IMG/VR virus record: IMGVR_UViG_3300035665_000023
Location: 9,018 to 73,017 of that record
DNA: 64,000 nt
Reading direction: 5' to 3' (one strand)
DNA from: a virus
Shown: positions 15,137-16,585 of the stretch, piece after piece
Layout of the letters: every line of letters starts with the position of its first letter
How positions within the stretch are numbered: position 1 is the stretch's first letter
Program-made: the position numbers and the translations under genes
Notes under the pieces: generated by a model
Databases searched by the model: none
What the model was told of the DNA's origin: nothing
Seen by the model: only the letters and a program-made list of their open reading frames with translations

Positions 15137-16414
15137 TTACGCTGCATCTCCACGCTTTGGATCACTAACTTTCCGCACGCCACGCACGCCGTTGGTGGTA
15201 GCCTTGGGCTTCTTTGGCGGCTTCGGCTTTTTGCCATACTCAATACCCTCCGATTCACACTTCGACGCTAACATGGTTCCGAACTGAAAGTAGTCCCAAC
15301 TCATTGCCGATATCCTGTCATTGCCAACAGTCGATAAGTACCGGCCCTCTCTGTTTTCGTCCCTGGGTTGAAGATACACAATGCGACCACATCCCTCACG
15401 TATAGCAAGGTTAACAACCTGCTTTGAGACTTCGTTGTTGTACCTCTTGGTAAAATCCTTCCATCTACTTGAAAGTTTCGTCCACACCGCATCCGCCCGC
15501 CTGCGTCCGTGACCTTTCTGATTCGATCCAGACCATCGATAGTGTGTCTTGCGACTATTTCGTTCTCTGATAATGGCTCGTCGCGCGTGTTCTACGTGAG
15601 CGCCATTGCCACCGAACCGCCACGACCCACGTCCATTGATTGCGACTCGCCACGGACCTGTTTTCGCAGGACGCACATACAACACTCGGTCGGCGCTCAA
15701 CTTCTCGCGGACCTTGTTCGGCATTTCGTAAGCGATAGAGACAAACCATTTCCCGCGATCATAGATCAGCGAAGACCCCTTCCATGCGTATTCGCCAGCG
15801 ATAATTTTTTCGACAGTGGATCGGACGGACGCACACTTTCTTTTTGCCAACATCAATTCGCACGGCTCAACGACACTCTTCCCGTCAGCAAGTCTCTCAA
15901 TGCGAAGCTCGCAAATGTACTTGTCGCCTTGCTTGAACAGCTTGGCGTTGTCGCGGTCGAAGGGGATCGGTTGCGGTCGCGTGAACGAGGGTAATGACTC
16001 GTTTCCAAAAAGAATTGAAACCCACCCAGGGAGTGACCCAGAAGCGGCCTTCCGTGTATTAACCTTGCTCTGCCAAGCATTGGTCAACAGTCCGCGCGTT
16101 CGGACATTAACGCTTGAAAACTCTGCCGACATAATCCGGTAGAATGATCTTGCATCTGCTGATTTCGTTAATGGTTCTTCGACTGCCTTGCATGGCCATT
16201 GCGGCTTATCGCCTCGTTTTGTTTCTTGCCACGCTTTGTATGCATCGAAATGCGATCGAAGCTTATCCGCCGATCCATTATTCGCGTGATGGCAAAGCCA
16301 CACTTGCCAAAGCCTGTTTGTCATGCGTTGACATGCGACAGCAAGCTCCTTCCATGCGTCACGACGCTCTTTTGCAAACCCAAAGATTTCGATTCTTGCT
16401 GCTCGTATCGCCAT
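15137..16414 (-). CDS. Nuclease-dead Cas12f/TnpB-family protein (~425 aa)
   Basis: By-eye match to Cas12f1 blocks (ILFGNESLPSF, EKIIAGEY, KWFVSIAYE, KGHGRRR, VNLAIREGCGRI, WDYFQF...KCESEGI). RuvC-I GIDLG reads YVRPA, RuvC-II MEDL reads YLQP, and the Zn finger and RuvC-III are absent. Confidence 0.85.
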   Translation of the reverse strand: MAIRAARIEIFGFAKERRDAWKELAVACQRMTNRLWQVWLCHHANNGSADKLRSHFDAYKAWQETKRGDKPQWPCKAVEEPLTKSADARSFYRIMSAEFSSVNVRTRGLLTNAWQSKVNTRKAASGSLPGWVSILFGNESLPSFTRPQPIPFDRDNAKLFKQGDKYICELRIERLADGKSVVEPCELMLAKRKCASVRSTVEKIIAGEYAWKGSSLIYDRGKWFVSIAYEMPNKVREKLSADRVLYVRPAKTGPWRVAINGRGSWRFGGNGAHVEHARRAIIRERNSRKTHYRWSGSNQKGHGRRRADAVWTKLSSRWKDFTKRYNNEVSKQVVNLAIREGCGRIVYLQPRDENREGRYLSTVGNDRISAMSWDYFQFGTMLASKCESEGIEYGKKPKPPKKPKATTNGVRGVRKVSDPKRGDAA

Positions 16415-16446
16415 TATTCCGTGTTCCCTATCCGCCTTGCATCGTG

Positions 16447-16585
16447 TAATAAAAGCCCGGCAGGGTTTTTTACGCCCTGCCGGGCAACCAAAGAACGAAG
16501 CGAGTGCTGCATGGCTATCAAAGTCCATAGCTTTTCTCGCTTCCGGTCGTGCAATCGACCGTCACGGCATCAACTGCCGTTGTTC
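16447..16585 (-). ncRNA. Putative tracrRNA
   Basis: Anti-repeat at 16486-16504 (16/19 to the repeat 3' end), three short hairpins at 16514-16580, and an 11-bp GC hairpin followed by TTTTATT on the minus strand. Confidence 0.7.

Follow-up and report, generated by a model that had tools for sequence, protein, structure and literature searches.

The DNA studied here comes from a lake-water phage and comprises bases 9018-73017 of the 73,017-bp IMG/VR virus record IMGVR_UViG_3300035665_000023, whose completeness is rated 100%; these 64,000 nucleotides (nt) are called the window below. On its minus strand lies a CRISPR locus in which a 108-aa open reading frame (ORF; stop codon 16590-16588) is followed by a 173-nt interval, the gene of a Cas12f-like effector, a 143-aa ORF and the repeat array (Table 1). 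The locus is embedded in the recombination and replication module of the phage, among whose genes one resembles exonuclease VIII and another a replication initiator. We consider it established, on comparative grounds, that positions 16587-16448 encode the trans-activating CRISPR RNA (tracrRNA) of a phage-borne type V-F-like CRISPR system. Between its terminator-like hairpin and the effector gene stands a lone copy of the end of the repeat, the orphan tail, followed by 21 nt in the position of a spacer, the pseudo-spacer. This succession of elements had been drawn in an original prediction made from the letters of the window, and each of them was found on the minus strand where it had been placed.

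Table 1. Features of the CRISPR locus and of the region upstream of the effector gene, in window coordinates.
Feature	Position	Strand	Description and basis
CRISPR array	13830-14581	-	11 repeats of 36 nt; spacers of 32-38 nt; distal repeats degenerate
Conserved 143-aa ORF	14643-15074	-	Family unassigned; tblastn
Effector gene (Cas12f-like protein)	15137-16414	-	425 aa, C-terminally truncated, nuclease-dead as judged from sequence, fold and family alignment
Effector ATG	16414-16412	-	
Variable 9 nt before the ATG	16415-16423	-	SD-like (Shine-Dalgarno-like) GGA inside; 5/10 identical to L003, with indels
Conserved 12 nt GCGGAUAGGGAA	16424-16435	-	Guide seed position; identity with L003
Leader after the orphan tail, 21 nt GCGGATAGGGAACACGGAATA	16435-16415	-	
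Orphan repeat tail ACGATGCAAG (as RNA ACGAUGCAAG)	16436-16445	-	4 anti-repeat-pairing nt plus pseudoknot-forming UGCAAG
tracrRNA gene	16448-16587	-	Begins right after the stop codon of the 108-aa ORF; ends through the terminator T-run
Intrinsic-terminator-like hairpin	16448-16485	-	11-bp stem GCCCGGCAGGG/CCCTGCCGGGC, 9-nt loop; stem-loop 16485-16455, then TTTTATT 16454-16448
Anti-repeat UCGUUCUUUGGUU	16486-16498	-	Pairing and covariation with the repeat
CTCGCTTCGTTCTTTGGTT, anti-repeat of the original prediction	16504-16486	-	First 8 nt lie inside the composite hairpin
Composite hairpin	16497-16543	-	Outer stem GAAGCGAG (16543-16536) with CUCGCUUC; inner stem 16531-16506
Hairpin 2	16544-16561	-	Loop ATTGCA 16555-16550; repeat-tail pseudoknot
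Hairpin 1	16580-16564	-	

We found a core motif of this tracrRNA upstream of the homologous effector gene in 29/33 loci; the misses were L005 and L010, which have no upstream DNA, L024, where a variant core can be recognized by eye, and L028, where an array runs up to the contig start. The 186-nt interval folds better than 200/200 shuffled versions (z -5.4). When a hand-written structure of 23 pairs was laid over a gapless alignment of 25 loci, 87% of the cells were paired and 15 of the 23 pairs vary on both sides, a result that none of 500 shuffles equalled, while slid controls gave 5-7 such pairs. Helices 2 and 3, those of the composite hairpin, contribute 5 and 4 pairs that changed on both sides, for example GGTGAG/CTCACC and GGCGCG/CGCGCC. 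An Rfam search of the tracrRNA returned no family.

Two contacts of the tracrRNA with the repeat change together with it. The partner of the anti-repeat is the stretch of the repeat from about -17 to -8. With the newer repeats the anti-repeat forms 10 Watson-Crick base pairs (bp), at a duplex energy of -13.3 kcal/mol, and with repeat 10, an older one of the TTTGGT type, it forms 12, at -16.8 kcal/mol, in line with the better fit to the older repeats that had been predicted. Over 16 loci, the mean run of pairs of the anti-repeat is 7.9 with the repeat of its own locus and 3.9 with those of other loci, and 0/20000 permutations reach this value. The anti-repeat had at first been drawn longer (16504-16486), and only its part at 16498-16486 makes the contact, since the first 8 nt, CTCGCTTC (16504-16497), form together with GAAGCGAG an internal stem, of which they are the 3' strand and which covaries over the 25 loci. 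The second contact is made by the loop of hairpin 2, which pairs with UGCAA in the repeat tail (the last 5-7 nt, beside the guide). A Watson-Crick run of 5-7 nt with the own repeat was found in 16/16 loci, with a mean of 5.3 against 3.2 for the repeats of other loci (0/20000 permutations reach it), and tail and loop change in concert: GCGAG occurs with TCGCA, ACAGG with CCTGT, TGTCCAA with TTGGACA, and TGAGA with TCTCA. The passages of a structural report on Un1Cas12f1 describe a loop of stem 3 that pairs with the repeat-derived region (AR:R 1) and positions the guide (PMC8053092). By analogy, the hairpin-2 loop contact is the counterpart of this AR:R 1 pairing in Cas12f1.

As the structure covaries and both repeat contacts covary, this RNA is identified as a tracrRNA, and its covariation-backed structure with two repeat contacts, in an uncharacterized family of dead Cas12f proteins, constitutes the best-supported result of our study. 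The tracrRNA-like element of the original prediction is thus upheld, by its structure in 25 loci, its repeat contacts in 16 loci and its terminator-like hairpin.

The effector matches AsCas12f among the PDB sequences (phmmer, E 7e-16, residues 104-392), and no match was found in Pfam. Its AlphaFold2 model has a predicted local distance difference test (pLDDT) score of 83.7 and retrieves with Foldseek only Cas12f chains in the top 12 places (E 1e-18 to 2e-15; best 8j12_A, E 1e-18). About 100 homologues of 400-480 aa occur in metagenomes, one of them named as from a Pirellulaceae metagenome-assembled genome (MAG); the homologues P0003-P0017 are 70-81% identical to the effector. In the family alignment, which holds 18 effector homologues, the position of the RuvC-I Asp reads (R/I/W)P(A/G) or AA/AE in all 18 members, RPA/RPG being typical, and the position of the RuvC-II Glu lies in a YLQP-like motif, with the Glu retained only in the homologue P0102. 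These positions were assigned with the catalytic residue numbers of AsCas12f. The C-terminus, about 33 aa past the last aligned helix, is a disordered, basic and Cys-free tail that replaces the zinc ribbon and RuvC-III. In this sense, the effector has the fold, the sequence similarity and the array association of Cas12f, and it has neither the RuvC Asp/Glu/Asp nor the zinc ribbon. Since the RuvC residues are replaced and a basic tail stands in place of the zinc ribbon and RuvC-III part, the protein is, judged from its sequence, a nuclease-dead, truncated relative of Cas12f. P0102 is the most distant homologue (28% identity, 540 aa), with LIYEQP at RuvC-II and an insertion of about 50 aa, and may mark the transition from active to dead proteins.

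Two observations back the effector start at 16414, the alignment of the N-termini and the indels, 4 nt in sum, that lie upstream of it in L003, a locus of the closest relative. A longer frame of 463 aa is on record (P0002, 100% identical; 15137-16528, minus strand), whose database start ATG falls inside the tracrRNA; the frame-breaking indels of L003 and the aligned N-termini rule it out as an annotation artefact. Domain searches of the neighbouring genes revealed no sigma factor near the effector. Arrays adjoin the effector in 21/32 fetched loci as well as in the window, seven of these loci being viral contigs of 26-38 kb, and the 11 fetched loci that have no array are mostly short or cut contigs. 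A scan of IMG/VR with the effector protein returned only the known 48% relatives, and phages in GenBank gave only TnpB-like proteins of about 24% identity.

The terminator-like hairpin bears on how the effector is expressed. A strict script found a hairpin with a T-run after the anti-repeat in 17/25 loci and looser hairpins can be seen by eye in three more, while in the remaining 5/25 there is no terminator and the gene begins 17-40 nt past the anti-repeat. The hairpin of the window is 35/37 identical in L003; a generic terminator scanner missed it, probably owing to its loop limit of 8. From the T-run to the effector ATG there are only 33 nt, and a scan of the minus strand for sigma-70-like promoters found no site. 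Given this short gap and the five relatives that have no terminator, the effector mRNA probably begins with the tracrRNA or reads through it. A read-through transcript of tracrRNA and leader to which the effector binds is a plausible proposal from the arrangement of the locus.

Behind this hairpin, ACGATGCAAG is exactly the last 10 nt of the 36-nt repeat, as had been noticed in the original prediction. In the window this 10-mer occurs 10 times, against 0.19 copies expected on both strands: eight copies lie in the array, which is 1.8 kb downstream of the tracrRNA on the same strand and has repeats ending in ...AACGATGCAAG, one is the orphan and one is on the plus strand. The latter (18301-18310) lies inside a gene of a 497-aa ATPase-like protein and is most likely due to chance. 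When the 71-nt interval before the ATG was shuffled, 0/2000 versions reached a 10/10 match to the tail. The orphan tail is predicted to bind the hairpin-2 loop with -4.8 kcal/mol, equal to the tail of a real repeat.

Two other pairings of this region were considered and set aside. The orphan tail had been proposed to pair in cis with the anti-repeat at 8/10 positions, a count that can be reproduced by hand (6 of the last 8 when computed). Such a pairing with CUCGCUUC can be drawn, but this strand is occupied by the covarying internal stem, and the partner that covaries with the tail is the hairpin-2 loop. The comparison of own and other loci gave 5.0 vs 4.6 pairs for tail and CUCGCUUC (32/20000 permutations), a small signal that we attribute by inspection to two columns of the true anti-repeat. 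The anti-repeat could also pair with the pseudo-spacer (UAGGGAAC with GUUCUUUG, -7.2 kcal/mol), a value equalled by 818/5000 random 21-mers of the phage.

Conservation of the leader could be followed in the only close relative available, L003/L004, which is one sister lineage with 88% protein identity. Between the window and L003 only 89/170 fourfold-degenerate sites of the effector gene are identical (52%), thus neutral sites are near saturation. The tracrRNA is identical at 95/102 positions and the linker after the T-run at 2/5, with a 2-nt indel; then follow the orphan (9/10), the next 12 nt, GCGGATAGGGAA (12/12), and the last 9-11 nt before the start codon, which fall back to 5/10 with indels. 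In consequence, the block ACGAYGCAAGGCGGATAGGGAA, that is, the orphan and the 12 nt after it, is 21/22 identical between diverged linkers, for which a hand calculation gives a binomial probability of about 1e-5 under neutrality. Because this identity contrasts with the 52% at fourfold sites, the comparison argues that orphan and seed are under purifying selection in the L003/L004 sister lineage. The tail of L003 agrees at 8/10 with the consensus tail of its own array and, by hand, at 9/10 with those of its repeats that read AACGATGCAAG.

The orphan was surveyed in the 16 loci whose repeat is known. It is present in the window (10/10) and in L003 alone, and in three of the 16 loci the interval is occupied by arrays or partial repeats. 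As judged from this distribution, the orphan is specific to a lineage and not a trait of the family. The original prediction had counted as evidence against itself either that no RNA of the interval is bound by the protein or that the 10-nt match is absent from related loci, and the second half of this was observed: the match is missing from the 11 other loci (best match <=7/10, P > 0.06) and is kept in L003/L004 (9/10). It had also offered a relic of the passage from TnpB to Cas12f as an explanation. OmegaRNAs are encoded at the 3' end of tnpB, as a single RNA that overlaps the end of the nuclease gene and carries the guide at its own 3' end. The element of the window is confined to one lineage, and in the 29/33 loci where the RNA was located it precedes the gene on the 5' side, so this explanation is not supported.

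In other relatives the same interval holds repeat material of diverse form. Locus L018 (45% protein identity) has in its leader 12 units of a mini-repeat of about 15 nt, from 3 nt after the terminator to 33 nt before the start codon, of which 7 nt fit its own anti-repeat and 8 nt its own hairpin-2 loop. The whole locus contains at least 34 such units, GTTAGTG[A/G]ATGCGA[A/G], at 2614-2969, 4216-4907 and 5547-5680, thus on both sides of the effector gene, with spacers of 11-27 nt and a few of 41-50 nt, and no full 36-nt repeat was seen in it. In L029/L030 an array of four repeats lies between tracrRNA and effector (2698-3000); after it, a partial repeat of 15 nt, GGGCAGTTAGCAGGG, reaches directly to the GTG start codon, so that the last unit would have the beginning of the effector ORF as its guide. 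A last unit with the effector's own leader as guide occurs in at least three lineages. These arrangements suggest that, in this family of dead Cas12f proteins, an array unit can consist of no more than the repeat tail.

We propose that the lineage of the window and L003 keeps a selected crRNA-like (CRISPR RNA-like) unit in the effector leader, made of the 10-nt repeat tail and a 12-nt seed, and that the read-through transcript is a natural single-guide-like RNA with a regulatory role. From the sequence evidence at hand we put this at roughly 45%, somewhat short of an even chance. The order of the DNA is consistent with a single guide: scaffold, terminator hairpin, tail and 21 nt follow one another, with a tail that can dock on the loop and can form only 4 bp with the anti-repeat. 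Termination would yield a free tracrRNA. Read-through would be needed for effector expression in any case, as there is no evident space for a promoter; it would join scaffold, orphan tail and leader in a single transcript, in which the terminator hairpin would take the place of the duplex between repeat and anti-repeat. If the effector were loaded on this leader RNA, the 21-nt leader and the start codon would be buried or processed, which would give a negative feedback that real crRNAs could relieve by competing for the effector. In its complete form the mechanism would read as follows: a dead Cas12f takes the leader of its own mRNA as a guide when crRNAs are scarce and hides or trims the start codon, by which the phage matches the effector to the guide supply at the RNA level. 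As a whole, this chain of steps is doubtful, and we regard it as unlikely in all its parts together. Instead or in addition, the unit may provide a fixed guide of 12 nt directed at a site on DNA other than that of the phage, a role which the conserved seed fits at least as well.

Several observations weigh against a single-guide-like RNA. The pairing of the orphan with the anti-repeat amounts to only 4 bp and -2.5 kcal/mol, vs -13.3 kcal/mol for a real repeat, and the T>C change in the orphan of L003/L004 loses one pair with the loop. The sequence conservation comes from one independent sister lineage, L003/L004, while the orphan is missing from most loci of the survey; among these is L017, whose protein is 81% identical over the first 180 residues and which has no terminator hairpin either. 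Masking of the ribosome binding site by itself would explain neither the conserved first 12 nt nor the free 9 nt next to that site, and a promoter, operator or translation signal could be the source of the constraint on the block instead. Additionally, the sequencing runs on record as containing the stretch include none listed as RNA. Lake-water DNA runs with at least half of the sampled words numbered 19; one run labelled RNA-Seq covers, as contigs, only part of the effector gene and is probably DNA.

The explanation that stands up best beside the single-guide-like RNA is that the orphan is the relic of a former array between tracrRNA and effector and is conserved through an overlapping expression signal, such as a promoter, an operator or a translation enhancer. 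Arrays or partial repeats are indeed found at exactly this position in L013, L018, L028 and L029/L030. The orphan comprises none of the part of the repeat that pairs with the anti-repeat beyond the 4 nt mentioned, most relatives have no orphan, and L003 tolerates a mismatch to its own repeats, all of which favours a relic. However, a relic devoid of function is not expected to keep 21/22 identity where neutral sites keep 52%, no sigma-70-like promoter was found there, the SD-like GGA falls outside the conserved block, within the variable 9 nt, and the exact identity of the tail with the repeat in the window would be a coincidence. We therefore hold this explanation to be rather unlikely, though worth keeping in mind.

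A further explanation places the action on DNA. Orphan tail and 12-nt seed would form a fixed regulatory guide, in the manner of CreR, tracr-L or TldR, with which the dead effector represses transcription at a site in the host, in a competing element or at a promoter. Conservation of the tail and the first 12 nt with freedom of the rest is what a guide with a seed alone predicts, and the effector is nuclease-dead. Short matches can suffice, as the passages of two reports indicate: 11 bp for tracr-L (10.1101/2023.03.03.530964) and 13-14 bp for dCas12f-sigmaE (PMC13472631). Searches for the site weigh on the other side. In the 73-kb phage, where the original prediction had suggested looking for the seed, GCGGATAGGGAA has 5 other sites with <=2 mismatches vs 6.75 in shuffles, hence no second target, and neither the pseudo-spacer nor the spacers of the window have a second match among the matches listed, the longest 5'-anchored one of the pseudo-spacer among these being 8 nt. 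The 313 spacers of the family gave 7 weak matches of 15-18 nt and no protospacer in the fetched loci with arrays masked; spacers 1 and 2 (first 24 nt) had 0 matches in IMG/VR; and the array of the window gave 4 matches of chance level in 401 Planctomycetota genomes (E 0.0015-0.0066) and none in two MAGs that carry homologues. These searches thus define no protospacer-adjacent motif (PAM). A 17-nt pattern of tail and seed was met in IMG/VR on 3 contigs, two of the same sequence, in unrelated contexts and at about the chance level by a rough estimate. As for a PAM-flanked guide match at the effector promoter, the mark of tracr-L and CreR, no match in the phage went beyond chance, promoter and PAM not being defined here. 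For these reasons a DNA-directed guide appears to us quite unlikely.

It is highly improbable that an ordinary 5' leader agrees with the repeat over these 10 nt by chance: chance copies do occur in 64 kb, as the exact one on the plus strand within a gene illustrates, but 0.19 copies are expected in the whole window on both strands, 0/2000 shuffles of the 71-nt interval reach 10/10, and the orphan has the correct strand and position and is conserved in L003/L004.

Other features of the locus deserve a comment. For the 143-aa ORF downstream of the effector, tblastn gave matches with E 5e-71 to 1e-3 in 29 locus records, several of them duplicates, and most of these matches closely follow the effector gene. 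Searches of Pfam, NCBIfam and PHROG gave no match for this ORF, whose product we regard as a candidate partner protein of the dead effector. Among lake-water runs, the interval is identical in the four that were compared (DNA contigs), except for two substitutions in the inner hairpin of the tracrRNA in one of them, X14 (16520 A>G and 16523 G>A, plus strand). On a contig of this run, spacer 6 (14153-14189) is also replaced by another one, so the array differs between populations. At 60626-61597 the phage has 13-14 tandem copies of a 72-nt unit, with a mutual identity of 79-100%, which are unrelated to the CRISPR locus.

The system described here resembles Un1Cas12f1 and AsCas12f in that the tracrRNA is encoded beside a miniature effector of Cas12f fold and an array, and has a loop for the repeat tail, as the passages on Un1Cas12f1 relate (PMC8053092), a long central duplex and a 3' anti-repeat. 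Unlike Cas12f1, the effector of the window has no RuvC residues and no zinc ribbon, and its tracrRNA lies directly 5' of the effector gene, with which it is probably co-transcribed, belongs to no Rfam family and is followed by the orphan tail. Inactivated branches within Cas12f were noted in an earlier census, in the passages of PMC10691335. According to the passages of PMC13472631, homologues of dead Cas12f mostly pair with sigma factors and use single guides, with no tracrRNA found, and a CRISPR-associated dCas12f cluster with a Chitinophagaceae example is also mentioned. With dCas12f-sigmaE and the CRISPR-associated dCas12f (PMC13472631) and with phage TldR, as far as the passages on them go, our effector shares the truncated C-terminus, the lost RuvC residues, the Cas12f-like fold and a presumed binding of DNA without cutting; like the effector of the window, TldR is phage-encoded. 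In contrast to dCas12f-sigmaE, the window has a covarying tracrRNA and no nearby sigma factor. In sequence the effector is also closer to AsCas12f (E 7e-16) than to the dCas12f of known structure, 9n9c, which is absent from the sequence matches listed and ranks 13 with Foldseek. The dead-Cas12f family of the window may already be listed in PMC13472631 or PMC10691335.

In regard to regulation, the nearest counterparts are tracr-L and CreR. As related in passages of other papers, tracr-L of the Streptococcus pyogenes Cas9 system (Workman 2021) is a longer tracrRNA with a repeat-like piece and a short guide that serves self-regulation of the effector, features which the window would share. In those accounts, though, the extra piece of tracr-L lies upstream in the long isoform and its 11-nt guide matches the cas9 promoter, whereas the piece in the window lies downstream of the terminator, has no separate DNA target in the phage, is proposed to act on the mRNA leader and belongs to a type V dead effector. 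CreR and standalone repeat-like elements are described in the passages of two reports as degenerate repeats just upstream of an effector gene, for which self-repression of Cas and sensing of the crRNA supply were proposed or shown; about 34% of V-A loci have a repeat-like element adjoining cas12a, and tracr-L (Cas9) and CreR (types I-B, I-E, V-A) act on promoters via partial PAM-side matches (10.1101/2023.03.10.532045; 10.1101/2023.03.03.530964). The orphan tail just upstream of the effector gene of the window may be a counterpart of these. In the same passages, however, CreR is transcribed from a promoter of its own and has a more complete pseudo-repeat, and its pseudo-spacer has a match at a PAM-flanked site of the cas promoter; none of these was seen in the window, where the leader contains the last 10 of the 36 repeat nt and no second pseudo-repeat was seen. 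A tracrRNA-dependent V-F case is not mentioned in these passages on CreR-type elements. Our literature search found no paper linking tracr-L or a long-form tracrRNA with Cas12f or type V-F.

Hence, repeat-like regulators of cas genes and dead Cas12f proteins were both already known, and what is new is the orphan behind a terminator in a tracrRNA-dependent, dead, phage-borne type V system, which, to go by its sequence, may let the effector sense or control its own messenger. To our knowledge, every known case of Cas self-regulation by repeat-like RNAs proceeds via DNA binding at a promoter. If the proposal holds, the window would provide the first case of self-regulation in a tracrRNA-dependent type V system, and the first such regulator that acts on the messenger instead of the promoter. 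It would also be a blueprint from nature of how a guide can be linked to a Cas12f-type tracrRNA by only about 10 nt of repeat. The mini-repeat arrays of L018 point in the same direction, which is relevant to the design of very short guides for miniature effectors.

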